Source of the DNA: Syntrophorhabdus sp. PtaB.Bin027
Lineage (GTDB): Bacteria; Desulfobacterota; Syntrophorhabdia; Syntrophorhabdales; Syntrophorhabdaceae
Length of the DNA stretch: 64,000 nucleotides
Assembly: GCA_002067585.1 (NCBI GenBank)
Contig: MVQO01000218.1
Span: 3,455-67,454 of the forward strand
Direction: 5' to 3'
The position numbers were made by a program, and so were the translations under genes. This document shows, piece after piece, positions 1 through 63,085 of the stretch (position 1 is its first letter; the number at the start of each line of letters is the position of its first letter). Under the pieces are notes generated by a model. It was not told the DNA's origin, did no database searches, and saw nothing but the letters and a program-made list of their open reading frames with translations.

Positions 1-424
1 CCTCATCCCGCATCCCTTTGACAGTCTGGATGAGCTGAATAGAGTCTATGTCAAATACATTTTTTGCCGTGGGGTGATCTCCAAATTTCTGGTGATCCCC
101 TGAAAGACAGAGAAGGTTGTTGATGCCCAACGCAGCAGCTCCGAGGATATCGCTCTGCATTGCAATCCTGTTGCGGTCTCTGCATACCATTTGCATTATC
201 GGGTCAAGACCCACCCCTTTGAGCACCAGGCACGCAGAAAAGCTACTCATGCGAACTACGCTTGTCTGGTTGTCCGTAACGTTAACGCAGTCTACATATC
301 CGAGCAGATAACTGCCCTTTTTCTTCACAACCTCAGGATCAGCCCCCCGTGGAGGGCCGCACTCCGATGTAACAGCAAAGGTCCCGCTTTTCAGGACCCG
401 TTCGAGGTTGCTCTGCGTGCTCAT
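1..424 (-). CDS. metF: Methylenetetrahydrofolate reductase (5' part, runs off window start)
   Basis: Not in ORF track. Manual minus-strand translation from ATG at 424 gives MSTQSNLERVLKSGTFAVTSECGPPRGADP...DCVNVTDNQTSVVRMSS...DPIMQMVCRDRNRIAMQSDILGAAALGINNLLCLSGDH, which carries MetF motifs. ATGA overlap with the metV stop. Confidence 0.93.
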   Translation of the reverse strand, partial: MSTQSNLERVLKSGTFAVTSECGPPRGADPEVVKKKGSYLLGYVDCVNVTDNQTSVVRMSSFSACLVLKGVGLDPIMQMVCRDRNRIAMQSDILGAAALGINNLLCLSGDHQKFGDHPTAKNVFDIDSIQLIQTVKGMRDE

Positions 425-1089
425 ATTTTCAAGTCCTCCCTCACCCTTTTCCTTGGACCACCGTCCCTGCTCGTTGACCAATCTTTCATGGGCTGGATTT
501 CAAGGTATTTATCCATCATATTCAACTCTCTGTAACGGTCCACTATAAGGTGCCAGGCACACGGAATATCCCTGTCCACCTCACACTTGCCGCCCTGGGA
601 GCCTCCACATGGACCGTTAAATATACTCTTTGCGCATCGAGTGACAGGGCAGATTCCAAGGGTTTTGTGGAGAATGCAGTTACCACAGCCCTGACACCTC
701 TCAGTCCATACACCATGCTCTTCAGTGACACCATAAAAGGTCGTGTTGACTGCCGGCAAAACCAGCCTATCTCTGTAATGCTCTCCTACAAATTGAATCC
801 CACAGCCACACGCCATAGATAGGACCACCTCGTAATCATGAATGAAAGGTTTCAGACTCTCAACATACTCGGGATCGCAGTTGCGCTCAAGCGTTACCTC
901 CCCTATCTCAACAGGTTTTCCTTCCTTCTGCCTGTAAAGGCGAATCTCAGATGCCAGAACCGCAACCTCTTTTGAACCGCCCGTGGCACAGACAGTTACA
1001 CATTCGTTACAGCCAAGGAGGAGTATCTTCGAATAGGGCTTGAGCATCTCGATAATCTCTTCAAAGGGTTTTCTGTTTGCTACTATCAT
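421..1089 (-). CDS. metV: MetV (MTHFR small Fe-S/Zn subunit)
   Basis: Cys-rich motifs GCNECVTVC, ERCQGCGNC, GICPVTRCAKSIFNGPCGGS, CAW; directly upstream of metF. Confidence 0.88.
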   Translation of the reverse strand: MIVANRKPFEEIIEMLKPYSKILLLGCNECVTVCATGGSKEVAVLASEIRLYRQKEGKPVEIGEVTLERNCDPEYVESLKPFIHDYEVVLSMACGCGIQFVGEHYRDRLVLPAVNTTFYGVTEEHGVWTERCQGCGNCILHKTLGICPVTRCAKSIFNGPCGGSQGGKCEVDRDIPCAWHLIVDRYRELNMMDKYLEIQPMKDWSTSRDGGPRKRVREDLKI

Positions 1090-1178: not shown

Positions 1179-1595
1179 TTACTTTTCCTTTTTTGCAGGA
1201 TTTGGCCCTAGTGTTCGGATTTTCTCTGTCATCTCTCTTGCCACTTCGGCAAAACGTTGCCCCTCAGCTGAAGACATGTTATACATTGCCACGCGCTCAC
1301 CCCCCACCCCGCATTCATCAAGGATATGTTTCAAATACTCTACCCGTTTTTTTGCCCTAATATTTCCCACAAGGTAGTGACAGTCACCTTCAAGGCACCC
1401 CACAAGATAAACACCGTCTGCACCGTCCTCAAAGGCTTTAAGAACATGAGTGATATCTACCCTACCTGTACAGGGGACTTTAATGATTTTCACATTTGTA
1501 GGATAAGAAAGACGCATCGAACCTGCCAGGTCCGCCGCAGTATACCCTCAATATTCGCAACAATAGGCAATAATTTGCGGTTCAAATTTCCCCAT
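1179..1595 (-). CDS. mvhD: Hydrogenase iron-sulfur subunit MvhD, selenocysteine-containing (UGA at 1548-1550)
   Basis: The track ORF (1179-1517) extends in frame upstream through one TGA to ATG 1595, which has a GAGGA RBS: MGKFEPQIIAYCCEY-U-GYTAADLAGSMRLSYP. This matches the MvhD CCxxC...ADLAG motif; KVPCTGRV and GCxxGDCHY are also present. Confidence 0.92.
1514..1538 (-). promoter_or_regulatory. Putative bacterial SECIS hairpin
   Basis: Minus-strand mRNA after the UGA reads GCG-GC-GGACCU-GGC-AGGUUC-GA-UGC. The G-starting apical loop lies about 21 nt after the UGA. Confidence 0.65.
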
Positions 1596-1604
1596 TAGAA
1601 TTCC

Positions 1605-1700
1605 TCAACTACAGTTCATGTTTCGAAAGCAAATGTCCTCGGTCTCACCGTCAACCTTTTCTTCATCCTGTTCTTTTAAATCTGCAATCTTCATTTTCAC
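1605..1700 (-). CDS. Small acidic peptide (29-31 aa) between hdrA and mvhD
   Basis: GTG at 1700 overlaps the hdrA stop (GTGA); alternative ATG at 1694. Translation (MK)MKIADLKEQDEEKVDGETEDICFRNMNCS*. It fills the intergenic gap and is in frame with mvhD. Confidence 0.4.
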   Translation of the reverse strand: MKMKIADLKEQDEEKVDGETEDICFRNMNCS

Positions 1701-6180: not shown

Positions 6181-6543
6181 TTACCGCCTTACCTTTTTAA
6201 AAACAGCTTCTCTTCCCGCATATCCACTGATCTCTACCATATTCCTCCCCAGGAGATCCTTCATGTGATCAAAAACCTGCTGCAGTCTCATTCCTGTTGC
6301 CACTGACAGGTCATCAATTGTACTGTCATTTTTTGCAAGTGTCTCCAGGATACGCGCCTTCTCGAATGCTGCCTCGAGGAGAGAGGTGAATACAAGAGAA
6401 AACTGCCTGCCGGTCATTTTTTCACCGTACACATTCCCGGACATCAAGGCGTCTTTTTTATTGAGAAGTCTTGTGAGTTTCTCAGCCCCTCCGGGGTAGT
6501 GTGTTTTTACGTAGTCAAGTTTCTCGTCAATATTCATGACCAA
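6181..6543 (-). CDS. Hypothetical protein with C-terminal winged-helix-like segment, inside hdr operon
   Basis: 120-aa ORF between hdrB and hdrA; TIDDLSVATGMRLQQVFDHMKDLLGRNMV has an HTH-like pattern. Likely start ATG 6537. Confidence 0.7.
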   Translation of the reverse strand: MVMNIDEKLDYVKTHYPGGAEKLTRLLNKKDALMSGNVYGEKMTGRQFSLVFTSLLEAAFEKARILETLAKNDSTIDDLSVATGMRLQQVFDHMKDLLGRNMVEISGYAGREAVFKKVRR

Positions 6544-6551
6544 TACCGGAT

Positions 6552-7415
6552 TTATCCACCTATCTTCTTCACCTTCTTTACAGCCTGGTCCACGGCTATC
6601 ACATGAGAGTTGCTGCCGCTTAGTCTTCCAGAGATGGCAAGCTCAAAAACCTCGGATAGAAAGAGAATGGGAAGAGCCTGGTCAGTCCTGCCAAGATAGG
6701 GTAATAGATCGAGGTTCAACTGGCAGAGCGGACATGGCGTTACAATTACATCAGCTCCGAGCAATACTGCCATATCCATGATCTTATCTGAAAGGTCATA
6801 GGTAATATCCTTATCCGTCAGCGTTTTGCTCGCACCACAACACTCCATCTTATATGGCCAGTTTACAAGCTCAACCCCTAGAGCCCACAGCAATGAATCC
6901 ATGCTCGTTGGATTTTCTTTATCGTCAAAGGCCTCCATACCCATGACCCTCGTGAGAAGACAGCCATAATAGGGGACAACCCTAAGGGGAGAGATGTCAT
7001 ATTTAAGCCTTCCGGCAATAACCTCAATCCCCACACGGTCATGGAACACTTCAATGATATTCTTAACCTCTCCAGTACCCAGGCATTTGAGTGGTGAAAT
7101 AACGCTGTTAATATCCTCCCTGAAATTCTTGTCCTGTCTCATGCGCTCATTTGTAACCTTCGTCCGTATGTAACATGCTGAACAGGGGGCGAACAGATGA
7201 TTGTTCTGTTTTTCTGCAAGGGCAAGGTTTCTTGCAGCCAGAGCATGGGCAAGTCTCTCATCTACCGTATTTGCTGCAGATGCCCCGCAGCATGACCAGT
7301 CGGGAAGTTCCTGAATCTCTATCCCGTAAAAGGAAAAAACTTGCTTTATGGATGTTTCATAGAACTTGCTCGATGTCTTAAGTGAACAGCCTGGATAATA
7401 GGTAAGGGCTGTCAT
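6552..7415 (-). CDS. hdrB: Heterodisulfide reductase subunit B (two CCG domains)
   Basis: YYPGCSL, DWSCCGAS, CSACY, YYGCLL, ECCGAS, TPCPLCQLNLD. Confidence 0.93.
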   Translation of the reverse strand: MTALTYYPGCSLKTSSKFYETSIKQVFSFYGIEIQELPDWSCCGASAANTVDERLAHALAARNLALAEKQNNHLFAPCSACYIRTKVTNERMRQDKNFREDINSVISPLKCLGTGEVKNIIEVFHDRVGIEVIAGRLKYDISPLRVVPYYGCLLTRVMGMEAFDDKENPTSMDSLLWALGVELVNWPYKMECCGASKTLTDKDITYDLSDKIMDMAVLLGADVIVTPCPLCQLNLDLLPYLGRTDQALPILFLSEVFELAISGRLSGSNSHVIAVDQAVKKVKKIGG

Positions 7416-7464: not shown

Positions 7465-8022
7465 TCACTGGCTGCATTTCTTAAATATCTCCTTCAACTG
7501 CTCACGATCCCTCACGCTGTGTGGAAAAATACCCATCCTTCCCTTCAGGAGCATGCCTATTCCCATTTTGGCATCTTCAAAAAGATTTTTCTTCTCTACT
7601 TTGAAGCGGAGAATAGCCTCTATTTCGTGGAGTCTGCCATGGCGTGCAACGCTATCCAAAAATATCTTATCAAAAGTCCACGTATCCGTTTCTGCTGCCT
7701 TCTGCTCCTTAATGGCTACTTTTCGGATGGTATCGAAGACATGGGCAATGTCTATGTCGTTCGGGCACCTCACACTGCACGTGATGCACTGGACACAGGT
7801 CCATATCGCTTTAGCTTTGAGTACTTTTTCTCGCTCACCGAGGATTATGTAACGGATAATTCCATGAGGAAAGATATCCATCTGAGTGACTACCGGACAA
7901 CCTGCTGTGCACCGGTAGCACTGGTAGCACGCTGATATGTTTTGTCCTGACAATGCTTCCATTTCTTTTAAAAATGTGAGATCGTTCATTCGATATCCCG
8001 GGTTTTCCTCATATTTGAACAT
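7465..8022 (-). CDS. hdrC: Heterodisulfide reductase subunit C
   Basis: CYQCYRCTAGCP and IWTCVQCITCSVRCP; adjacent to hdrB. Confidence 0.92.
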   Translation of the reverse strand: MFKYEENPGYRMNDLTFLKEMEALSGQNISACYQCYRCTAGCPVVTQMDIFPHGIIRYIILGEREKVLKAKAIWTCVQCITCSVRCPNDIDIAHVFDTIRKVAIKEQKAAETDTWTFDKIFLDSVARHGRLHEIEAILRFKVEKKNLFEDAKMGIGMLLKGRMGIFPHSVRDREQLKEIFKKCSQ

Positions 8023-8225: not shown

Positions 8226-10597
<2,372 letters not shown>

Positions 10598-13689: not shown

Positions 13690-15399
13690 TCATCCCCTGT
13701 ATCTGTTGGTTATGGGCATTCTTCGGTCCTTGCCCAGTGCCTTTGGCGTAATCTTGATTCCAGGAGGGGATTGCCGTCGCTTAAACTCGCTCCCGTCTAC
13801 CATCCTCGATACCTGAATGACAACATCCTTTGCAAGAAAAGAAGAAGTAATCTCCTCGGGATGCTTGTCCTCTTCGACATAGGCCTTGAGAATGGAGTCA
13901 AGTGTTTCATATGGAGGAAGGGTATCGCGATCTTTTTGACCTGGCCTGAGTTCTGCAGTCGGTTCCTTATCAAGAATCCGTTGGGGAATTACAGGACCTA
14001 GGGAATTCCTGTAAGCACTCAATGTATACACGAGTGTCTTTGGTACGTCTTTGATGACCGCAAAGCCACCCGCCATGTCTCCATAAAGGGTTGAATAACC
14101 GACACTCATTTCTGATTTATTGCCAGCAGCCAATACAAGCCAGCCGAACTTATTTGAAAGGGCCATCAGGATATTGCCGCGAATCCTGGCCTGAATGTTC
14201 TCTTCCGTAATGTCTTCCTTGCGGTTTTTGAACAACGGCAAAAGCGTTGAAATATAGGCCATGTATACGTCATCGATGGGGACTGTAAGCAACTCGATGC
14301 CGAGATTTGCTGCGAGTTCTCGTGCATCTTCCTCTGATTCTTTGGATGTATATCGTGATGGCATAAAAACACCAGTGACATGATCTTTTCCCAGGGCATC
14401 TGCTGCAAGGGTTGCAACGATTGCCGAATCTATTCCTCCACTCAGACCCAAAGTGACCTTGTGAAAACCATTTTTCGCAACATAGTCATGGAGGCCTAGT
14501 TCAAGAGCCTTGTAAACTTCAGCAACTGGATTCAGCATCTCTCTCTGATGCCATGTAATCGCCGGTTTATCGGCATATTCTACATTCTCGGACAGCGTGA
14601 TCATTTCAAGTTTCGTGGCTCCATCTGTTTCTAACTTCCCTGTCTGTTCTTTTATAAGCTCGTTCTTGGGGATATCAATGACCAGGAGGTCTTCACTGAA
14701 TGCAGCAGCGCGTGCAATGATAGCCCCGGTGTTGTCACAAACCATACTCTGGCCATCAAAAACAAGCTCATCCTGACCACCTACCAGGTTCACGTAGAAG
14801 ATAAAAACTCTGTTAATGGAAGCATGGTGACTCACAATTTCTTCTCTAACCTTTATTTTGCCTGCTTGGTATGGGGAGGTATTGATATTGAGAATCAAAG
14901 CAGCACCTGAAGCAGCCTGCGAAGCTGTTGGCCCTTCATCAAACCATGTGTACTCGCAAATATTTACTCCAAAAATGAGTTCACCGAGTTTAAAAATAAG
15001 GGATTCATCGCCTGAAGAAAAATAACGTTTCTCATCAAATACGCCGTAATTTGACAAAAGGGTCTTGCGGCAGACACCTTTAATTTCATGGTCATATATC
15101 ACTGAAGCTGAGTTGTATATCTTGCCATTGTCTCTATCCACAAACCCCACAACCGCCACAATATCCTTTATTGACCGGGCAACCTCTTCAACTGCTCTTA
15201 TGTTATCTTCAATAAACTTTGGCTTCAGAAGCAGGTCTTCTGGCGGACAACCTGTTATTGCAAGCTCGGGAAAGACAACAATATCTGCACCCGAACCTCT
15301 TGCTTTTCGTGCATATTCAATAATCTTTGCACTGTTGCCTCTAAAGTCTCCAACAGTGCAATTAATCTGAGCAATCGCAATTCGCCAGTTTTCAGTCAT
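13690..15399 (-). CDS. nadE: Glutamine-dependent NAD+ synthetase
   Basis: N-terminal nitrilase domain (FPELA, NICE) plus LGLSGGIDS, ENIQARIRG, GNKSE, PTAELRPGQKD. Confidence 0.95.
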   Translation of the reverse strand: MTENWRIAIAQINCTVGDFRGNSAKIIEYARKARGSGADIVVFPELAITGCPPEDLLLKPKFIEDNIRAVEEVARSIKDIVAVVGFVDRDNGKIYNSASVIYDHEIKGVCRKTLLSNYGVFDEKRYFSSGDESLIFKLGELIFGVNICEYTWFDEGPTASQAASGAALILNINTSPYQAGKIKVREEIVSHHASINRVFIFYVNLVGGQDELVFDGQSMVCDNTGAIIARAAAFSEDLLVIDIPKNELIKEQTGKLETDGATKLEMITLSENVEYADKPAITWHQREMLNPVAEVYKALELGLHDYVAKNGFHKVTLGLSGGIDSAIVATLAADALGKDHVTGVFMPSRYTSKESEEDARELAANLGIELLTVPIDDVYMAYISTLLPLFKNRKEDITEENIQARIRGNILMALSNKFGWLVLAAGNKSEMSVGYSTLYGDMAGGFAVIKDVPKTLVYTLSAYRNSLGPVIPQRILDKEPTAELRPGQKDRDTLPPYETLDSILKAYVEEDKHPEEITSSFLAKDVVIQVSRMVDGSEFKRRQSPPGIKITPKALGKDRRMPITNRYRG

Positions 15400-18928: not shown

Positions 18929-20280
18929 AACCCTCACAAATTCTCATTGTAGAAGATGATCGAAAAATGAGGCTGGCACTGCGAGAAATCATGACAAAGG
19001 AAGGGTACTCTGTTGACACAGTAGAGACAGGGGAAGCTGCGCTTGGTCGGGTAGAAGAAACAAGTTATGACCTGGTAATTACAGACCTCAAGCTGCCTGG
19101 AATAGATGGAATGAGTCTGCTCAAGGCCATTCGTAAATCAAGACCTGACACAAGCGTGGTCATTATAACAGCTTATGCAACGGTAGATACTGCAGTTGAG
19201 GCAATGCGGGAAGGAGCAGAGGACTACATATCAAAACCTTTCAACCTTGATGAAATAAGGATCATCGTGAAAAAAGTGCTTGAAAAAAAGGCACTTTTGG
19301 ATGATAACAGGCTCCTAAGAAACCAGCTCAAGAAAAAATACAGCTATGATAATGTGGTGGGTAATAGCGAGGCTATGATTGAGGTCTACAAAACCATTGA
19401 CAAGGTGAAGGATGCAAAAGCAACCGTTCTGATCTTGGGCGAGACTGGGACGGGCAAGGAGCTTGTGGCAAGAGCTATCCATTACAACAGTACCCGTTCT
19501 GGAGAACCATTTCTTCCTGTTAATTGTGCGGCCCTCACAGAGTCTCTCCTTGAAAGCGAGCTCTTTGGGTACGTAAAAGGTGCATTTACAGGGGCTCTAA
19601 AGGATAAACTGGGTGTGTTCGAAACAGCTGATGGTGGTACAGTTTTCCTCGATGAAATCGGGGACATAAGCCCTCGCCTGCAACAGGTATTGCTCCGGGT
19701 TTTGGAGAACGGAGAGATTCAGCCAGTGGGCTCGACAGCACGGAAAAAGGTTGATGTCAGGGTTGTTGCAGCTACAAACAAAAACCTGGAAGAGTTAATG
19801 AAGACATCATTATTCAGAGCTGATCTTTACTATCGTCTCAACGTAATCTCCCTACGGCTGCCCTCCCTGTTGGAGAGAAAAGAAGATATTCCAGCCCTTG
19901 CAAACCATTTTCTCAGAAAGTACTCGGCTGAAAACAACAAAACCATAACCGGCATATCAAAGGAGGCGCTTCAGATGCTTGAAGGCTATAACTGGCCTGG
20001 GAATGTACGGGAACTCGAAAATGTAATCGAACGGGCTACACTCCTTGAAACAACAGACGAAATTACCGTTGATAGTCTCTCTGAGAAAATACGGAGTTCC
20101 CTGAATAGATCTCCGGTGGTACTTGAGGAGGACCTGAGGACTCTTGAGGAAGTCGGTAGGGCATATATAATAGAAGTCCTTGAGAAGACAGGCGGAAACA
20201 AGGTTAAGACCTCCGAGATCCTGGGTATTAATCGTACCTCTCTCTGGCGGATGATGCAGAGATTGAAAATCGTTGCATAA
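18925..20280 (+). CDS. sigma-54-dependent response regulator (NtrC/AtoC family)
   Basis: REC domain, GETGTGKE, GAFTGA, WPGNVRELEN, Fis-type HTH; ATGA overlap with the kinase. Confidence 0.95.
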   Translation: MKPSQILIVEDDRKMRLALREIMTKEGYSVDTVETGEAALGRVEETSYDLVITDLKLPGIDGMSLLKAIRKSRPDTSVVIITAYATVDTAVEAMREGAEDYISKPFNLDEIRIIVKKVLEKKALLDDNRLLRNQLKKKYSYDNVVGNSEAMIEVYKTIDKVKDAKATVLILGETGTGKELVARAIHYNSTRSGEPFLPVNCAALTESLLESELFGYVKGAFTGALKDKLGVFETADGGTVFLDEIGDISPRLQQVLLRVLENGEIQPVGSTARKKVDVRVVAATNKNLEELMKTSLFRADLYYRLNVISLRLPSLLERKEDIPALANHFLRKYSAENNKTITGISKEALQMLEGYNWPGNVRELENVIERATLLETTDEITVDSLSEKIRSSLNRSPVVLEEDLRTLEEVGRAYIIEVLEKTGGNKVKTSEILGINRTSLWRMMQRLKIVA

Positions 20281-20305: not shown

Positions 20306-20398
20306 ACAGTTCTGGGAATATTTTTTCTGTATCCCCCGATTTAACCATACTTCTAAGCGAAAATAACTCCACTTACCTGTATTTAATGTACTTTTTCT

Positions 20399-20415
20399 TG
20401 GGCATGTTATTTGCT
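20399..20415 (+). promoter_or_regulatory. sigma-54 promoter (-24/-12)
   Basis: TGGGCAT-GTTAT-TTGCT; GG at 20401-02, GC at 20413-14. Confidence 0.7.
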
Positions 20416-20448
20416 TTATTAACTGATATCGAGCCAAGGGAGGAGGGA

Positions 20449-20880
20449 ATGAATATACGTTTTATTGATAAACACAGGGATTTTCAAATTACTTATGACA
20501 GACTTCTTGAGTTGAAAAATTCATTTGTCCTTGATCAGCATCAGCAGTTCCTTTGTAGAGCCCTCAGGCAAGATGGAAACTGGAGGCTTAAGGAAAGGAT
20601 TTTGGAATTTGCCATAGATATCCGAAAGCCCACAGATGACTTCATTGAGAACATCTGTGCTGTCATGACAAACAGAAACACGTCCATTAATGCCCGAATC
20701 CTTGCAGCTGACGCCCTTCGAGTCGTTGTGCCAAGGAAGGTGCGGCAAACCATGGCTTATCCTACCTTTCGGGGGGCATCAGTTTTGCGGGTCATGAAAG
20801 ACATTCTCAAGGCACCAGAGGTTCCTGAGCTTCACGAAGCAGTTACGCGAGCCTTGAAAGCTATTCAGGAAGGATCGTGA
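20449..20880 (+). CDS. Hypothetical HEAT-repeat-like helical protein (143 aa)
   Basis: Part of track ORF 20386-20880; start reassigned to ATG 20449 after GGAGGAGG and downstream of the sigma-54 promoter. ARILAADAL and VTRALKAI look HEAT-like. Confidence 0.7.
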   Translation: MNIRFIDKHRDFQITYDRLLELKNSFVLDQHQQFLCRALRQDGNWRLKERILEFAIDIRKPTDDFIENICAVMTNRNTSINARILAADALRVVVPRKVRQTMAYPTFRGASVLRVMKDILKAPEVPELHEAVTRALKAIQEGS

Positions 20881-20907
20881 AGCAAAAACGACAGCAGGGG
20901 GTGGACC

Positions 20908-21945
20908 ATGACACATAGAGACTACACACCAGAAGTCACACGGGTGCCAACCGGCTACAACTGTGACGGTATGAAAATCATCACATACTTTTCCGATGGT
21001 AAAGAGATTGCCAAAGAAATTCTCTGCGACAACGGGCTTCAGCTCGTGATGACAGGCACCATACCGGATGGCACTGTATTGGAGTATTATTGGGTGGGAA
21101 CCCTGCACAGGGTTTTCACATATGCAAACAATAGGGCCCATGGCCGCAGTCACACATTTTACCCTGATGGTGCAATCTGGATGGAACAAGAATTCATCGA
21201 CGGCCTACTCCATGGCCCTATGAAAACATTTTACAAAGGCGGCACGATCCAAGAAGAATGTACATACAAAAGCGGCAGACTCCATGGGGAGCTTAAAAGG
21301 TATTATGAAGACGGAACTCTTGATACTCTGGCATACTTTAATGAGGGTAAGCTGGACGGAGACTACTGTACATACTTTCAGAACGGGATGCCCAGAGAAA
21401 AAAGCATCTTCAGAGATGGGATAAGAGAGGGAAACTCAATCAAATATTATGAGACAGGGGAGCTACAGTGCATAGATCTATGCCTTGAAGGGAGGGTGGC
21501 CCACAGAAAGAGATTTGATGAGAGAGGAAGATTAATTTCAGACCAGTCAGAGCCAGTTGCTGAGATTGAAGAAGAAAAAAGCATAGAAGCAAAGGAACAC
21601 ATGAACAGGGGCATGGACCTAGCAACTATGGGGTGCCATAAGCAAGCTGCAGAAGAATTCCAACGGGCTATTTCCGCAGATCCCTTCACCTACGAAGCAT
21701 ACCTGAGGCTTGCTGTTGCCTACCGGCGTCTCGGCTTTTACGGTGATTGCATCGATACGCTCGGGAAGTTGCTCGAAATTAACCCCCACCACCTTGAAGC
21801 CCGTTTTAACCTTGCAATAGCCCATGTAGTGACAGGAAACAGGGGGGAAGCGCTTGCTGGCTATCATGTATTGAGAGACATAGACGAAGGGTATGCACAC
21901 GGGCTAATGACCATTCTGGAATCGCCCAGATTGCATCTGCAATGA
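20908..21945 (+). CDS. MORN-variant (YwqK-like) repeat protein with C-terminal TPRs
   Basis: Repeated (Y/F)xxG.L.G...YYxxG units followed by TPR motifs (HMNRGMDL..AISADP..AYLRLAVAY..LEINP). Confidence 0.85.
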   Translation: MTHRDYTPEVTRVPTGYNCDGMKIITYFSDGKEIAKEILCDNGLQLVMTGTIPDGTVLEYYWVGTLHRVFTYANNRAHGRSHTFYPDGAIWMEQEFIDGLLHGPMKTFYKGGTIQEECTYKSGRLHGELKRYYEDGTLDTLAYFNEGKLDGDYCTYFQNGMPREKSIFRDGIREGNSIKYYETGELQCIDLCLEGRVAHRKRFDERGRLISDQSEPVAEIEEEKSIEAKEHMNRGMDLATMGCHKQAAEEFQRAISADPFTYEAYLRLAVAYRRLGFYGDCIDTLGKLLEINPHHLEARFNLAIAHVVTGNRGEALAGYHVLRDIDEGYAHGLMTILESPRLHLQ

Positions 21946-45837: not shown

Positions 45838-46782
45838 TCAATTTCTGTTGAGGGCTTTAGCTCCATCAGGTCCTTTATGTGGCTGCCATAGACACAGGTT
45901 TGCCATATCTCCATTAAAGGCAGTCCTGGCTTTTTTCAGGACCCTCTGCTCGATCTGTCTGACACGCTCCCGGGATATACAGAACCTTGCCCCTATCTCT
46001 TCAAGCGTTTCCGGCTTATCTGCCATAATGCGGTTATCAAGTATGCATATCTCTTTCTCGTTCAGATTAATCTTCAACGCCTTAATTTTTTCATCCAGGA
46101 CTCTTTTCGATTCCTTTTCCATTACCACATACTCCACGTCCTCATCGGATGTGAGTAAATCCATAATCGTATCAACTCCATCGTCATTCACAGGAGAGTC
46201 AAGATATATGTCATTGTATGTTAATCGAATATTCATCTCTATTATGTCCTCCTCTTTTACTCCCAGGGAACGGGCAAGGGTGGCAGGGGCAGGGTTCAGC
46301 CCAAGATGCTCAAGTCTCCGTTTTTCCTTGTTCAATCGATAGAAAAGCCTCCTCTGGCCTTCGGTCGTTCCAATTTTTACAAGGCTCCATGAGCTCATTA
46401 TATACTGCAGGATATAAGCCCTTATCCAGAATTGCGCATATGTTGAGAATTTGGTTCCCTTGTGGGGATTGTATTTCTTTATGGCATGGAGAAGACCAAC
46501 ATTACCTTCCTGAATAAGATCGAGAATATTCTGATACGTGTTGTAGTAGCTCATAGCGATTTTAACCACAAGCCTGAGGTTAGAAACTGTCAGTTTCTCA
46601 ACCGCTCTGGGGTCATGGTTCTCGTAAACAAGCTGTGTAACCTCACGTTCTTCTTTCAGGGAAAGCACAGGATATTTTGATAGTTCCGAAAGATATGCAG
46701 TCAACGGGTCGCGCTTGACCGGCAGGCATTTTTTATGCTTCCTGTGTTCCGTACATTCTCCACAAACACAATGCCTTTCCAT
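45838..46782 (-). CDS. rpoH: RpoH (sigma-32)-like RNA polymerase sigma factor
   Basis: SNLRLVVKIA, DLIQEGNVGL, FSTYAQFWIRAYI, RpoH-box-like VKIGTTEGQRRLFYRL, SRERVRQIE; start reassigned to ATG 46782 (AGGAGG RBS). Confidence 0.85.
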   Translation of the reverse strand: MERHCVCGECTEHRKHKKCLPVKRDPLTAYLSELSKYPVLSLKEEREVTQLVYENHDPRAVEKLTVSNLRLVVKIAMSYYNTYQNILDLIQEGNVGLLHAIKKYNPHKGTKFSTYAQFWIRAYILQYIMSSWSLVKIGTTEGQRRLFYRLNKEKRRLEHLGLNPAPATLARSLGVKEEDIIEMNIRLTYNDIYLDSPVNDDGVDTIMDLLTSDEDVEYVVMEKESKRVLDEKIKALKINLNEKEICILDNRIMADKPETLEEIGARFCISRERVRQIEQRVLKKARTAFNGDMANLCLWQPHKGPDGAKALNRN

Positions 46783-47995: not shown

Positions 47996-48526
47996 ATGGT
48001 AAAAGAGAGCATACCTTACCTTGCCTTCGTCGGTAGATCAAAGACTGGAAAAACTACTGTCATTGAAAAGCTTATCCCTGCCCTCCGTGAAAAAGGGTTT
48101 AAGATAGCGGTTATCAAACATCATCACCATGATTTCGATATTGATATACCGGGAAAAGATACATACCGTTATAAGCAGGCCGGTGCCTCTACAAGCATTA
48201 TTGCCTCACCCGGTAAAGTAGCGGTTGTTGAAGATACTGCGAGAGAACTCCCCCTTCATGAGATTATTACCAGGTATGTACATGATGATGTTGACCTCCT
48301 GCTCATAGAGGGCTTCAAGAAAGAAAACATCCCTAAGATTGAGGTATTCCGTCAAAAAGAAGATGGGACCACACCAGTGTGCACCGGAGATAAAAACCTT
48401 ATTGCCGTTGTTACTGATGAATCAGTGAAAACGTCTCTTCCCATCTTCACACGGAATGATGTTCAGGGGATTGCCGAGTTTATTGTAAACCGTTTTTTGC
48501 GACAAAAATCTTCTGGAGTTCCTTGA
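47996..48526 (+). CDS. mobB: Molybdopterin-guanine dinucleotide biosynthesis protein B
   Basis: GRSKTGKTT, IKHHHHDFDID.PGKDT, LIEGFK. Confidence 0.93.
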   Translation: MVKESIPYLAFVGRSKTGKTTVIEKLIPALREKGFKIAVIKHHHHDFDIDIPGKDTYRYKQAGASTSIIASPGKVAVVEDTARELPLHEIITRYVHDDVDLLLIEGFKKENIPKIEVFRQKEDGTTPVCTGDKNLIAVVTDESVKTSLPIFTRNDVQGIAEFIVNRFLRQKSSGVP

Positions 48527-49739
48527 CCAGAGCAATATTCTCAAGATGACCTGTTTGTTTTGCAGAGATTCTGCCTATAACGGGCCTGTTCAAGAGATAT
48601 ATATCACCGATAAGATCAAGCACCTTGTGCCTAACAAACTCATCAGGAAACCGCAATGTGGTGTTAACAACCTCTTCATCATTCAGAAGGATTACATTGT
48701 TAACCCGCCCGCCGGAACCGAGTCCCATCTTTGCAAGGCGTTCAAAATCCTTGATAAATCCGAAGGTTCTTGCAGGGGCAATATTCTGTAAAAAATCATC
48801 TCTGTTGCCTGCAAAGTGGTATGACTGCCGGCCGATCGGCATGGGATGTTCCAAGATATATTCAACCTCGAACCTTTTTGAGGGCTCGATAGACAGGTGA
48901 CGACCGTCACCAGGGTTGGAAAGAACAATTTTTGTGTCTATTTTGAGAGGCTCTACCCCTTCCTTTTGTTCAACAATTCCTGCTTTTTCAATATTATTAC
49001 ACATCTCAAGGGCTGAGCCATCAAATATGGGCACCTCTTCGCTTACCTTTACCAGGAGGTTGGTGATTCCGAACATATGGCACGTGGCCATAAGGTGCTC
49101 TATTGTGCGAACCTGGCAGTTCTTTCCTTTAACAGTAGATGCATATCCCACCGAGAACACATAGTCGATGTGTGCAGGGATTCGTTCACCATCAGGTATA
49201 TGTTCAAAAACAATCCCGGTGCCTTCTGGCATGGGCAGGAGAATCATGCCGGTCTTGACCCCCGAATGCAGGCCAACCCCGTACACAACGATACTTTCTC
49301 CAATAGTCTTTTGTTTGTAAACATCAGGGCCTTTTGAAATACCAACCTTTACGTCTTCGGCAACTTCTGTTTTTTGGTTTTCACCGGCAAGCCCTCGTGA
49401 AATCACTTCCAACACCTTATCAATGGATAGGGGCTTTTCAAGAAAATCGTATGCACCCATTTTTACGGCCTCAACTGCTGTCGAGATTGTCCCATGTCCT
49501 GATATGACAATTACAATGGCCTCTTTTTCTTTCTCTTTGATCATTTTGAGCACCTGAAGACCATCAAGTCCGGGCATCCAGATATCAAGGAGGACAATTT
49601 CAGGCCTGGCTGTATCGAAGAGTTCTAGTCCCTCCCTGCCTTCCCTGGCTGTAAAAACTTGAAATCCCTCATCCCTCAAGATGGAGGAAAGACTATCGAG
49701 AATTTGCTTTTCGTCGTCAATAATGAGAACCTTGTTCAT
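48480..49739 (-). CDS. lpxC: Response-regulator receiver fused to UDP-3-O-acyl-GlcNAc deacetylase (REC-LpxC)
   Basis: N-terminal IIDDE/LLDIWMP/SGHG/EKP receiver; C-terminal KQKTI..GVGLHSG, TIEH, PIFDGSA, ARTFGF, EFVRHKVLDLIGD, TGH. Start reassigned to ATG 49739. Confidence 0.93.
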   Translation of the reverse strand: MNKVLIIDDEKQILDSLSSILRDEGFQVFTAREGREGLELFDTARPEIVLLDIWMPGLDGLQVLKMIKEKEKEAIVIVISGHGTISTAVEAVKMGAYDFLEKPLSIDKVLEVISRGLAGENQKTEVAEDVKVGISKGPDVYKQKTIGESIVVYGVGLHSGVKTGMILLPMPEGTGIVFEHIPDGERIPAHIDYVFSVGYASTVKGKNCQVRTIEHLMATCHMFGITNLLVKVSEEVPIFDGSALEMCNNIEKAGIVEQKEGVEPLKIDTKIVLSNPGDGRHLSIEPSKRFEVEYILEHPMPIGRQSYHFAGNRDDFLQNIAPARTFGFIKDFERLAKMGLGSGGRVNNVILLNDEEVVNTTLRFPDEFVRHKVLDLIGDIYLLNRPVIGRISAKQTGHLENIALVKELQKIFVAKNGLQ

Positions 49740-49869
49740 AGAGGATATTTTACCTGAAAGCACTCTTATTTACAAATTTACAGGATTCATACCCTTATAG
49801 TGCAAATATCTTTTTTGTGCTATACTATGTTCACAAAGTTAAGGAACTTGGAGGTCAACAACATACTAA

Positions 49870-59803: not shown

Positions 59804-60685
59804 GTGGATGTGACAGGGGTATTGAATCAGGTGTTCGTGGGCTTGAGCCGTACAGTAATTCTCTTCATAGTCTCTTCAGGGTTGAGTCTTATCCTGGGGG
59901 TTTTGCGGATCCCAAATGTAGCACATGGTTCCCTATACATGATTGGCGCCTTTATGGCCTTTACCTTATCTAAACTTTTTGGTGGAGGGGACATGGGATT
60001 CTGGATGGCCCTCATCGGTGCCCCGCTCGCTGTTGCACTCATAAGCCTTGTCGCAGAGCGGGGTATTTTCCAATACCTCTACGAAAGGGAACACCTTATG
60101 TTAATCCTTTTGACCTTCGCATTTTCGCTGGTCTTTGGAGATCTCGTTAAAATAGTATGGGGCGGGGAATACAAATCAGTACCCGTCCCATACATGTTTC
60201 AGGGGTTTATCCCCCTTATTGGCGGTCTGCCTTTCCCCCTCTACAACCTTTTTCTTCTTGTGTGTGGCCCGATCATAGCAATCCTCCTCTGGCTTCTCGT
60301 GAATAAGACCAAGATTGGAAAAATTGCTAGGGCTGCTGCTGTGGACATGGAGATGGTGGGTGCTGTAGGTATAAATGTGAGCTGGGTTTTTGCCAGCGTC
60401 TTTGTCATTGGCTGTCTGCTCGCCGGTCTTGGTGGCGTACTTGTAGCTCCAACTGTCAGCGTTACCCTTGGTATGGACCACACCTTGATTATAGAAGCAT
60501 TTCTGATAGTTATTATGGGCGGCCTGGGCAATATATGGGGTGCTCTTCTCGGCGCGCTTATATTTGGACTTTCACAGTCTCTGGGTATTCTTATTTGGCC
60601 ACAGTTCGGCATTATTTTTCCTTACCTGGCTGTAGTCATCGTACTTATTTTCAGGCCCACAGGTCTGCTGAAAGCTACATGGTAA
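59804..60685 (+). CDS. HAAT ABC transporter permease (LivH-like)
   Basis: GLSLILG..NVAHG, GGLGNIWGA. Confidence 0.92.
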   Translation: MDVTGVLNQVFVGLSRTVILFIVSSGLSLILGVLRIPNVAHGSLYMIGAFMAFTLSKLFGGGDMGFWMALIGAPLAVALISLVAERGIFQYLYEREHLMLILLTFAFSLVFGDLVKIVWGGEYKSVPVPYMFQGFIPLIGGLPFPLYNLFLLVCGPIIAILLWLLVNKTKIGKIARAAAVDMEMVGAVGINVSWVFASVFVIGCLLAGLGGVLVAPTVSVTLGMDHTLIIEAFLIVIMGGLGNIWGALLGALIFGLSQSLGILIWPQFGIIFPYLAVVIVLIFRPTGLLKATW

Positions 60686-60698
60686 CGAGGAGCATAAT

Positions 60699-61655
60699 AT
60701 GGCAACAGGGATATTGAACATAAAAGGCAGAATCTGGTGGATCGTGGCGCTCGTTGTCCTCTGTCTGGTACCTTTTGTGCTGCCACGATTCTATGTTTAT
60801 CTCTTATCAATCATCTTGCTCTTTGGGCTTTTTGCTATGAGCAACAATTTTCCCCTTGGTTTTGGCGGTATCTACCAGCTCCACCATGCTGTATTTTATG
60901 GCGTAGGGGCTTACGGGACTGCCCTTGTTATTACAAAATCTGGCCTCTCGCCCTGGATCGCATTTATCGTGGGACCTCTCATAGCTGCATTTTTAGGTCT
61001 TGTTATGGGCATCATCTGCATCAGGCTCTCAAAGCTTTATTTTGGTATGCTTCAGATTTCTCTTGGATCCCTCGTCTGGGCAGTCGTGTACCGATGGTAC
61101 TCTTTCACCGGAGGTGATGATGGAATCCATGGGATTTCAGTACCTGACATTATATCTTCTTACAAAGGGGCCTACTATTTTACCCTCATAGTCACCGGCA
61201 TTTCCCTCTATGTTCTTTACAGACTCCTTAAATCTCCTTATGGAAGTGTTCTCCAGGGAATCCGGGACAACCCGGTTCGAAGCTCTATGATAGGAGTTAA
61301 CGTTAAGAAGCACCAGCTTCTTGCTCTTGTAATTGCAGGTTTTTTTGCCGGAGTGGCCGGCACTCTCTTTGTTGTTGTCGATAACACGGTATTTCCTGAT
61401 ATGATGTTCTGGACTCTATCGTTGGAAGCAGTCATCATGTGCTTGCTCGGAGGCTGGCTGACCTTTCTTGGACCCATGCTGGGCGCTGCACTCATTGTCA
61501 TTATCAGGACTTTCGTGAGCACCTATACATTGTATTGGGCTCTTGTTCTTGGCATAATTTTTACACTTGTCATATTCTTCCTGCCGAATGGTGTGCTGGG
61601 ATGGATAGAAGATGCGGTGAAGCGAAAACCAAACCTTGCAGAAGCAAAGGAGTAA
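60699..61655 (+). CDS. HAAT ABC transporter permease (LivM-like)
   Basis: FYGVGAY, GGDDGI, IRDNP, LLGG...FLGP. Confidence 0.92.
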   Translation: MATGILNIKGRIWWIVALVVLCLVPFVLPRFYVYLLSIILLFGLFAMSNNFPLGFGGIYQLHHAVFYGVGAYGTALVITKSGLSPWIAFIVGPLIAAFLGLVMGIICIRLSKLYFGMLQISLGSLVWAVVYRWYSFTGGDDGIHGISVPDIISSYKGAYYFTLIVTGISLYVLYRLLKSPYGSVLQGIRDNPVRSSMIGVNVKKHQLLALVIAGFFAGVAGTLFVVVDNTVFPDMMFWTLSLEAVIMCLLGGWLTFLGPMLGAALIVIIRTFVSTYTLYWALVLGIIFTLVIFFLPNGVLGWIEDAVKRKPNLAEAKE

Positions 61656-61658
61656 CCG

Positions 61659-62408
61659 GTGTTACAAGTAAAGTCCTTAACAAAATCTTTTGACGGTTTT
61701 AAAGCGGTAAACAATGCTAATCTCGATGTTCAGAATGGCGAGATTGTAGCAGTAATCGGTCCAAATGGGGCTGGAAAGACAACGCTCTTTAACCTTATTT
61801 CCGGTATTTTAAAGCCGGATTCCGGGCAGGTGCTTTTCAAGGGTGACGATATCACCGGACTCCCCCCCTACGAGATATGCAGGAAAAGAATATCGAGGTC
61901 GTTTCAGGTTGTCAACGTATTCAACAGGCTTAGTATTTTTGAGAATACTCAGATATCGATCCTTTCGAGACAAAAAAAGACATGGAATCTTTTTACTCCT
62001 TCCTCAAGTCTTGCTGTCAACGAAACAAACGAACTTCTGAAGAACGTTGGTCTCTACGAAAAAAGAGACCATATAAGCGGAGCTCTTTCCCATGGCGACA
62101 GAAAAGTTCTTGAGATTGCCATGGCATTAGGTGGAAACCCGGAATTTCTTATCCTTGATGAACCTACAGCGGGAATGTCTCCTGAAGAAACAACCCGCTG
62201 CATCGATCTCATCAAGGGCTTGAGAGAAAAATATGGGCTTACCATTCTGTTCTGTGAGCACGACATGGAAATTGTCTTTGGTATTGCAAGCCGGATCATG
62301 GTGATGGTTCGAGGCGGAACGATTGTACAGGGTACCTGCGAAGAGGTTCGGTGCAACGAAGCTGTTCAAGATGCTTACCTGGGCGGGAGTGACGTATGCT
62401 TGATGTAA
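61659..62408 (+). CDS. HAAT ABC transporter ATPase (LivG-like)
   Basis: GPNGAGKTT, LSHGD, LDEPTAG, EHDM. Confidence 0.93.
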   Translation: MLQVKSLTKSFDGFKAVNNANLDVQNGEIVAVIGPNGAGKTTLFNLISGILKPDSGQVLFKGDDITGLPPYEICRKRISRSFQVVNVFNRLSIFENTQISILSRQKKTWNLFTPSSSLAVNETNELLKNVGLYEKRDHISGALSHGDRKVLEIAMALGGNPEFLILDEPTAGMSPEETTRCIDLIKGLREKYGLTILFCEHDMEIVFGIASRIMVMVRGGTIVQGTCEEVRCNEAVQDAYLGGSDVCLM

Positions 62409-63085
62409 AGTCTATCAATACATTTTATGGATTGAGCCATATCCTTTTTGACTTGTCTATAACTGTGTCCAAAGGGGAGGTGGTAGGACTCCTTGGCAGG
62501 AATGGGGCTGGAAAAAGCACGACCATGCGGAGTATTATGGGGCTCACCCCTCCTAAGGAAGGCTCAGTTATTTTTAAAGGAGAGGATGTTACAGGTGTTA
62601 AGCCCTTCCGATTGTTCCGGAAAGGCATTGGCTATGTCCCTGACGATCGGAGAGTTTTTGCCGATCTTTCGGTTGACGATAACCTGGAGATTGTTTATAA
62701 ACAGGACACCACCTGGAACAAGGACAGGGTCTATGAACTATTTCCTGCCCTCGCAGAGATAAAAACACGGAGGGCAGGTCATTTGAGTGGCGGTGAACAA
62801 CAGATGCTCACAATTGCCCGTGCGCTCATGGGCAGCCCTGAACTTCTTCTGCTTGACGAACCTACGGAAGGACTTGCACCTTTAATTGTTCGCAACCTTG
62901 AAGAACAGATACTTAAACTGAGAGATGCAGGTATCAGCATTCTCCTCTCCGAACAGAACGTCAGGTCAGCCCTCAAGATAATAACTAGGGCTTACGTCAT
63001 CGATATCGGACGAATACGCTTTCATGGAACTGTTGCAGAACTCGATGCAAATGAGGAAATTAAGAAGAAATACCTGATGGTATAA
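62396..63085 (+). CDS. HAAT ABC transporter ATPase (LivF-like)
   Basis: GRNGAGKST, LSGGEQQ, LDEPTEGLAP, EQN. Confidence 0.93.
   Translation: MLDVKSINTFYGLSHILFDLSITVSKGEVVGLLGRNGAGKSTTMRSIMGLTPPKEGSVIFKGEDVTGVKPFRLFRKGIGYVPDDRRVFADLSVDDNLEIVYKQDTTWNKDRVYELFPALAEIKTRRAGHLSGGEQQMLTIARALMGSPELLLLDEPTEGLAPLIVRNLEEQILKLRDAGISILLSEQNVRSALKIITRAYVIDIGRIRFHGTVAELDANEEIKKKYLMV

Follow-up and report, generated by a model that had tools for sequence, protein, structure and literature searches.

The region analysed here is a 64,000-nucleotide stretch of DNA (the window) from Syntrophorhabdus sp. PtaB.Bin027, a bacterium of the Desulfobacterota, taken from contig MVQO01000218.1 (positions 3,455 to 67,454) of assembly GCA_002067585.1. 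The gene in question is an mvhD gene at 1179-1595 on the minus strand of the window, to which all mvhD coordinates refer, and it lies among genes for a heterodisulfide reductase (Hdr)-like complex and a methylene-tetrahydrofolate (THF) reductase. Its minus-strand sequence reads GAGGAattctaATG GGG AAA TTT GAA CCG CAA ATT ATT GCC TAT TGT TGC GAA TAT TGA GGG TAT ACT GCG GCG GAC CTG GCA GGT TCG ATG CGT, with a TGA in frame at codon 16 (Table 1). Judged from the sequence comparisons described below, the locus very probably encodes a full-length 138-residue MvhD-type [2Fe-2S] adaptor protein in which this UGA would be decoded as selenocysteine (Sec).

An ATG stands 15 or 16 codons 5′ of the UGA in 47 of the 55 distinct Sec forms of the gene, and the ribosome-binding site ahead of it is GAGGA in the relatives L007-L009 and GGAGA, shifted one base upstream, in L002-L004; the Shine-Dalgarno sequence of mvhD is a purine-rich block, not an invariant motif. 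Gene callers drop the first 26 residues of the product. The mechanical list of open reading frames (ORFs) gives mvhD as 1179-1517 (112 aa), starting at an internal ATG that has AGG 5-7 nt 5′ of it. Public calls in the 90% cluster of the protein are all 63-121 aa long and all lack the N-terminus, and truncated public calls of 126 aa are close homologues outside that cluster. An earlier note on this DNA had described an ATG with a ribosome-binding site, an in-frame TGA and a hairpin in a gene hidden from ORF callers; each of these features was found on the minus strand where the note had placed it, and the truncated calls of the 90% cluster agree with the description of the gene as hidden.

With cysteine entered at position 16, the read-through protein matches the complete Pfam model PF02662 (FlpD/MvhD; model positions 1-123 of 123) over residues 8-130 (E = 5e-51), and its score of 172.2 bits against a cut-off of 22.3 places it within the family. 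The match thus starts upstream of the UGA. The protein also aligns from residues 1-5 onward to all solved MvhD/VhuD chains (9SFI, 9SW2, 8RVU, 7BKB and 5ODC; E = 1e-36 to 1e-43), and the Methanococcus VhuD chain (9sfi_K) carries an ‘X’, denoting Sec, in the column of position 16 and a second Sec at the position of C67. The Cys set of the family is complete (C13, U16, C42, C67 and C72); C42, C67 and C72 are invariant in the homologue alignment, and column 16 holds C or U in all 88 of 88 loci. An AlphaFold2 model (mean predicted local distance difference test score, pLDDT, of 76) forms strand 1 from residues 8-13 and helix 1 from residues 18-26, so that the N-terminal 26 residues belong to the fold. 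In this model the loop that follows strand 1 contains U16, as part of a C13-x-x-U16 motif, and lies on the edge of the Rossmann-like fold where the cluster would bind. A 112-aa product begun at Met27 would lose strand 1, helix 1 and the CCxxU loop. By homology to 5ODC, 7BKB and 9SFI, and given the adjacent hdrA gene, the protein is expected to bind one [2Fe-2S] cluster and to pass electrons to HdrA.

A search over 5.8 billion proteins returned 7,667 matches, among which every full-length match at 67-81% identity has CCxYC at the codon-16 column. The top matches, at 86-92% identity (P0053, P0070, P0088, P0114, P0117 and P0120), cover only 80% of the query and begin at the equivalent of Met27, and the DNA behind such truncated calls (L001-L009) holds an ATG, the same 15 codons and a TGA in the codon-16 column. 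A scan with one genome per species yielded 80 loci, and in this set the column reads TGA in 51 and TGC or TGT in 27, never TAA or TAG, with 2 loci not resolved by the search patterns. The earlier note had matched the UGA to a Cys of the CCxxC motif, and the alignment of homologues bears this out, the column being that of the last Cys and alternating between Sec and Cys. Carriers of TGA include the isolates Desulfonema magnum and Desulfopila aestuarii, and carriers of Cys include Neomoorella stamsii, Desulfofundulus, Desulfomonile tiedjei and Desulforhopalus singaporensis. The TGA forms come mostly from Desulfobacterota orders, joined by a Desulfocucumis metagenome-assembled genome (MAG; Firmicutes) and by bins labelled Anaerolineales. 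Together with close relatives and the gene of the window itself, the species loci supplied 54 distinct TGA forms for comparison.

Downstream of the UGA, at the spacing known from bacteria, lies a conserved hairpin that is specific to the TGA forms, as is expected of the Sec insertion sequence element (SECIS) that the earlier note had suggested. Counted from the U of the UGA, its GGC loop occupies +24 to +26, 20 nt after the UGA; the first nt of its GGACCU arm is the 15th after the UGA, and a closing C-G pair extends the span to 1534-1518. Since a 67-nt stretch folded singly gave no significant result (z = -0.94), the case for a SECIS was built on the comparison of Sec with Cys forms, using column-by-column entropy in the 54 distinct TGA forms and 27 Cys forms. 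The 17-nt core GCGGACCUGGCAGGUUC has zero entropy in 54 of 54 TGA forms, including the synonymous sites +18, +21, +24, +27 and +30, whereas the Cys forms show 0.46-1.79 bits at these same sites though their peptide (AADLAGS) is similar. Flanking third positions (+6, +9, +12, +15, +33, +39, and +42 onward) are equally variable in the two classes, at about 1-1.9 bits. The 15-mer GGACCTGGCAGGTTC occurs in 67 copies in the 1.1 Mb made up of the window and the fetched loci, and a TGA starts exactly 17 nt upstream of all 67. Every TGA form has 6-7 of the 7 stem pairs formed, as against 1-5 in the Cys forms, and the mean minimum free energy of the 19-mer is -7.2 kcal/mol in TGA forms as against -2.65 kcal/mol in Cys forms. 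The 19-mer of the present genome folds at -8.2 kcal/mol (z = -2.4), and 4 of 200 shuffles fold as well.

The E. coli fdhF-type SECIS is reportedly a short stem-loop inside the ORF that lies just over ten nt beyond the UGA and has G residues in its apical loop. The mvhD hairpin resembles it in being an in-ORF stem-loop at similar spacing with G in the apical loop, but differs from it in sequence and in having a GGC triloop (or UGGCA pentaloop) with no bulged U evident, and SelB binding to the mvhD element is putative. In 3 of 4 metagenome runs, extra contigs of other organisms, one at a depth of about 200, match the window only at 1500-1563 and with 2-4 mismatches; because this stretch is the SECIS core region, the core motif is common to other abundant community members.

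On a rough neighbour-joining (NJ) tree, built from 100 residues outside the SECIS-constrained stretch and carrying no support values, at least about six switches between Sec and Cys are counted, a number that is only indicative. Most simply, the ancestor would have had Sec, which was repeatedly replaced by Cys, the hairpin decaying thereafter.

By analogy with the established bacterial Sec pathway, decoding of the mvhD UGA would be of the SelB type. Translation would begin at the ATG at 1595, and when the ribosome reached the UGA at 1550-1548, the hairpin CGGACCU-GGC-AGGUUCG, 13-14 nt downstream, would act as a bacterial SECIS, tethering SelB-GTP-Sec-tRNA(Sec) such that Sec would be inserted at codon 16 in place of termination. 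Several results weigh against this reading. No selA, selB, selD or tRNA-Sec was found in the 64-kb window by family scans of its long ORFs (other than four at 59804-63085) and by ARAGORN, and ARAGORN run on all 93 loci detected no tRNA-Sec. Rfam at gathering thresholds gave no family match on the window. Compensatory covariation is absent, the hairpin being invariant, and the pairing rests on class-specific conservation. The extended lower stem predicted in this genome (+12 to +15 with +35 to +38) was rejected as part of the element, not being conserved across the 54 TGA forms: +15 is U in 25 of 54 and +33 is C in 21 of 54. The protein scores 179.1 bits against the NCBIfam VhuD equivalog NF045873, under the cut-off of 215; the mvhD product is a homologue of archaeal VhuD, not a member of that equivalog.

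If the UGA were a genuine stop, the functional product would be a 112-residue protein from the ATG at 1517, and the 15 codons upstream would form a leader peptide or be untranslated. That ATG is in frame behind its AGG, the public annotations all use it or a nearby start, and Sec machinery was not found in the window, all of which would suit such an arrangement. The resulting protein, however, would be without two of the five invariant Cys/Sec positions as well as strand 1 and helix 1, and the Pfam model takes in residues from 8 onward. The stop codon in the column is moreover always TGA. The 15 codons ahead of it correspond by homology to the N-terminal end of every full-length MvhD, and purifying selection acts on their first and second positions: over the 12 codons 5′ of the UGA in 55 distinct TGA forms, mean entropy is 0.51 bits at first, 0.40 bits at second and 1.34 bits at third codon positions, a pattern that marks a peptide which is translated and under selection. 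Genuine termination is very improbable. A Cys codon (TGC or TGT) mutated or misread to TGA, the gene being a pseudogene or an assembly error, would require a single base change. The same TGA is present, however, in 51 of 80 species genomes (54 distinct forms), with the frame intact on both sides, and on hundreds of public contigs that carry the gene. Four independent metagenome assemblies (activated sludge, biofilm, mixed culture and soil; 2016-2019) show no differences over 1150-1700, and because the TGA is identical in all four it is not a sequencing error; the pseudogene or assembly-error explanation is effectively refuted.

Near-cognate or Cys insertion at Sec UGA codons is known in bacteria under selenium limitation, and the mvhD UGA might likewise be read through without selenium, through a near-cognate Cys- or Trp-tRNA or a tRNA(Sec) mischarged with Cys, to give a full-length non-selenoprotein at least when selenium is limiting. 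The Cys forms of the exact orthologue, evidently functional in 27 species, speak for this, but without SelB-type recoding it is difficult to account for a dedicated hairpin that is invariant in 54 forms and confined to TGA forms, and further selenoprotein genes with a CxxU motif are present in relatives. In the rest of the window UGA serves as a normal stop, at least nine long ORFs ending in TGA (for example NadE at 13690, a sigma factor at 45838 and HdrC at 7465), so recoding must be local. Selenium-free read-through is most improbable, and decoding of codon 16 as Sec is the reading retained here. An alternative genetic code with UGA as a genome-wide sense codon was rejected on the same nine or more ORFs.

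When the window was scanned for further ORFs interrupted by TGA, 117 mechanical candidates came up, none convincing as a selenoprotein. At 20386-21945 (plus strand), an ORF of 164 aa without a family match terminates at a TGA (20878-20880) that is in frame with a 345-aa tetratricopeptide repeat (TPR) protein starting 9 codons later; this continuity of frame is probably coincidence, there being no Cys context or hairpin evidence.

In a congener, the 130-kb contig L004 carries its own TGA-containing mvhD, with MvhD and HdrL about 88% identical to those of the window. On the same contig, at 19519-19782 (minus strand), a gene of the Rdx/SelW family is called as 60 aa, and the frame upstream of the call reads MNIVIEYCTA-TGA-NYLP, a CxxU motif, with an 8-bp hairpin whose GGG loop lies at +26 to +28; from its sequence this would be a second selenoprotein missed by gene callers beside the Sec-mvhD. 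Syntrophorhabdus aromaticivorans is listed among the carriers of a Sec-dependent cassette known as SAO (selenocysteine-assisted organometallic). The L004 genes and this listing speak, indirectly, for a Sec trait in the lineage.

Table 1. The mvhD gene, its predicted recoding signals and the neighbouring genes on the minus strand of the 64-kb window
Feature	Position	Strand	Basis and remarks
mvhD, full coding sequence	1179..1595	-	Translation; 138 codons including UGA as codon 16; stop TAA 1181-1179
Shine-Dalgarno-like GAGGA	1602..1606	-	Read from sequence; 6-nt spacer to ATG 1595-1593
mvhD start ATG	1593..1595	-	Kept in close relatives L002, L004 and L007
In-frame UGA, predicted Sec codon	1548..1550	-	Codon 16; context YCCEY-TGA-GYTAADLAG; aligned with Cys of CCxxC in full-length homologues
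Invariant 17-nt SECIS core GCGGACCUGGCAGGUUC	1519..1535	-	+16 to +32 from U of UGA
Hairpin CGGACCU-GGC-AGGUUCG	1518..1534	-	+17 to +33 from U of UGA; 7-bp stem here, 6 bp where +33 is C
Internal ATG (Met27), start taken by ORF callers	1515..1517	-	In-frame codon 27, at 3′ foot of hairpin
hdrC-like, 4Fe-4S dicluster	7465..8022	-	Pfam Fer4_8 and Fer4_17; NCBIfam HdrC/QmoC-like matches
hdrB-like, two CCG domains	6552..7415	-	Pfam PF02754 (two stretches); NCBIfam CoB-CoM heterodisulfide reductase subunit B, below cut-off
Conserved 120-aa ORF between hdrB and hdrA	6181..6543	-	No Pfam or NCBIfam match
hdrA-like, ‘HdrL’ type, 1480 aa	1697..6139	-	HdrA with inserted GltD-like NAD(P)H/FAD module
metV, methylene-THF reductase small subunit	421..1089	-	Pfam PF12225 DUF5981 ‘MTHFR C-terminal’, E = 6e-36
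metF, N-terminal 141 codons	1..424	-	Translation; gene runs off window start

The six genes, from hdrC, hdrB and hdrA through mvhD to metV and metF, follow one another in this order, and the complete gene set is thus present (Table 1). The metF gene, cut by the start of the window, is continued on longer contigs of the same organism as a 305-aa methylene-THF reductase (MTHFR) gene of PF02219, with a 4-nt overlap with the metV stop. Pfam matches in the HdrL protein comprise Pyr_redox_2, Fer4_20 (residues 157-234), FAD/NAD-binding domains and a C-terminal 2x[4Fe-4S] domain, and proteins more than 90% identical to it carry the name Syntrophorhabdus sp. The 120-aa ORF, which recurs at the same position with 41-74% identity in Syntrophorhabdaceae and related loci, may encode an uncharacterised extra subunit of the complex. 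Across the loci collected, metV lies directly downstream of mvhD in 83 of 87, and the order hdrA/L-mvhD-metV-metF is kept in 57 of 60 Sec loci and 26 of 27 Cys loci, Neomoorella among them, a synteny that upholds the link to an MTHFR-associated Hdr complex drawn in the earlier note. In two NCBI MAG contigs (L001 5458-9892, GCA_040769885.1; L007 5423-9813, GCA_040771005.1), the 1480-aa hdrA gene and its neighbours are split into many short calls; the region is intact in Logan and Joint Genome Institute (JGI) contigs of similar sequence, which suggests indel-rich assemblies rather than real pseudogenes.

Genes for an NrpR-type regulator and an NADP-glutamate dehydrogenase (8226-9221 and 9218-10573, both on the minus strand) lie directly upstream of the hdr-mvhD-metVF genes, the NrpR start overlapping the dehydrogenase stop by 4 nt. 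The NrpR family is best known as a euryarchaeal nitrogen repressor and is encoded here in a bacterium; in congeners NrpR is divergent from a gene with a Glu_synthase domain instead. Outside these genes, the content of the window points to a Gram-negative bacterium (RecA, AlaS, sigma-54 activators, LpxC and Lnt). It includes, at 48480-49763 (minus strand), a 427-aa protein with a receiver (REC) domain (residues ~10-136) fused to an LpxC deacetylase (~150-416), an unusual REC-LpxC architecture that suggests phospho-control of lipid A synthesis.

From this gene neighbourhood, MvhD is probably the electron-relay subunit of a MetFV-HdrABC-MvhD methylene-THF reductase complex of the HdrA type, with flavin-based bifurcation, in which it would carry electrons between HdrA(L), a flavoprotein linked to NAD(P)H, and the other subunits. 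Actual selenium incorporation, its dependence on SelB, the formation of this complex and the chemical role of selenium are what we infer from sequence.

MvhD/VhuD (PF02662, motif CxxU) is listed in a selenoproteome review as a recognised and experimentally verified selenoprotein family. Archaeal VhuD has the same fold as the present protein, to which it aligns over residues 5-135 (E = 7e-43), carries Sec in the column of U16 and serves as a [2Fe-2S] adaptor feeding HdrA. It differs in having its SECIS in the 3′ untranslated region rather than inside the ORF, in a second Sec at the position of C67, in the lack of C12, and in its partners, which are a [NiFeSe] hydrogenase or formate dehydrogenase (Fdh) rather than MetFV. 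Nearer in taxonomy is Desulfobacterium autotrophicum HRM2, in which four Sec-mvhD copies (MvhD1/2/3/5) with in-frame UGA and SECIS adjoin hdrA or hdrL (Strittmatter et al., 2009), and in Desulfococcus multivorans a Sec-mvhD with in-frame UGA and SECIS, likewise beside hdrA or hdrL, was annotated in 2016; the occurrence of Sec-MvhD in deltaproteobacteria, also put forward in the earlier note, has thus been in the literature since 2009. Both organisms belong to the Desulfobacterota, and the HdrL described there is the same type of HdrA/glutamate-synthase-like fusion as the 1480-aa protein here. They are of other genera, however, and are likened by description, the metVF linkage of their mvhD copies not being stated in the papers.

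The MetFV-HdrABC-MvhD methylene-THF reductase was purified from Moorella thermoacetica (Mock et al., 2014), and a physical complex with NADH-dependent methylene-THF reduction is biochemically shown only for Moorella. The gene set and its order (hdrC, hdrB, hdrA, mvhD, metV, metF) are the same in Moorella and in the window, and the MvhD of Neomoorella stamsii (L043) is 64% identical to the present protein over its full length, with the same synteny. The Moorella-type mvhD, in contrast, has Cys (TGT) at the codon-16 column and no conserved hairpin, and the window has an extra 120-aa ORF between hdrB and hdrA.

Residue U16 could bind the [2Fe-2S] cluster directly through its selenolate, as the earlier note had it, or it could stand beside the cluster as a redox-active selenol and form a selenenylsulfide. 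Across the family, conservation is limited to five Cys/Sec positions (13, 16, 42, 67 and 72), and archaeal VhuD has exactly these and no other Cys/Sec, two of them Sec, so at least one of 13 and 16 must be a ligand if four thiolate-type ligands are used; the loop at the cluster edge in which the AlphaFold2 model places U16 is likewise compatible with ligation. A 2026 cryo-electron microscopy (cryo-EM) preprint on the class II benzoyl-CoA reductase (BCRII) of Geobacter metallireducens points the other way. It describes a methanogen MvhD Cys near the [2Fe-2S] cluster that forms a regulatory disulfide, and an N-terminal Sec19 near the cluster in the MvhD-like subunit BamF, suggesting a selenenylsulfide; from its motif position Sec19 would be the equivalent of U16. 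BamF is, like the present protein, an MvhD-homologous [2Fe-2S] adaptor beside an HdrA-like bifurcating subunit, but it exceeds that protein in length by more than 100 residues, comprises two Rossmann domains and a winged-helix domain, and belongs to a different complex. The CxxU motif given for the family in the selenoproteome review is also typical of redox-active pairs, and the VhuD cryo-EM paper discusses only Sec197 of HdrA. Direct ligation is accordingly conceivable, with the balance of these points tipping towards a selenol beside the cluster.

Sec-containing MvhD, the bacterial SECIS and the MetFV-Hdr complex are each already established, and the conceptual addition made here is small. 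What may be new to the literature is that about two thirds of metVF-linked mvhD orthologues use Sec, that one invariant 17-nt SECIS core is common to the Sec-mvhD orthologues, and that Sec and Cys have switched at least about six times on the rough NJ tree. For annotation, the consequence is that hundreds of public contigs, and NCBI MAG records as well, carry mvhD as an N-terminally truncated protein of 112-126 aa. The truncation deletes the CCxxU loop defining the MvhD redox site, and it affects, in species-representative genomes of Desulfobacterota and relatives, about two thirds of the mvhD genes linked to metVF. The 15-17-nt core is a very clean marker for finding Sec-mvhD genes.

A single SECIS core is retained in at least 54 genes, yet about six or more switches are counted between Sec and Cys. 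A tentative proposal, which we regard as rather unlikely in its entirety, is that an ancestral Sec has been held under unusually stringent dual constraint (from the peptide and from SelB) with repeated losses, or that the UGA and its SECIS have spread laterally as a module, and that the Sec is a redox-active selenol beside the [2Fe-2S] cluster, not a ligand, which would gate one- to two-electron transfer to the FAD at which a methylene-THF reductase linked to NAD(P)H bifurcates electrons. If this is true, the Wood-Ljungdahl pathway's methyl branch in many syntrophs and sulfate reducers would depend on selenium.

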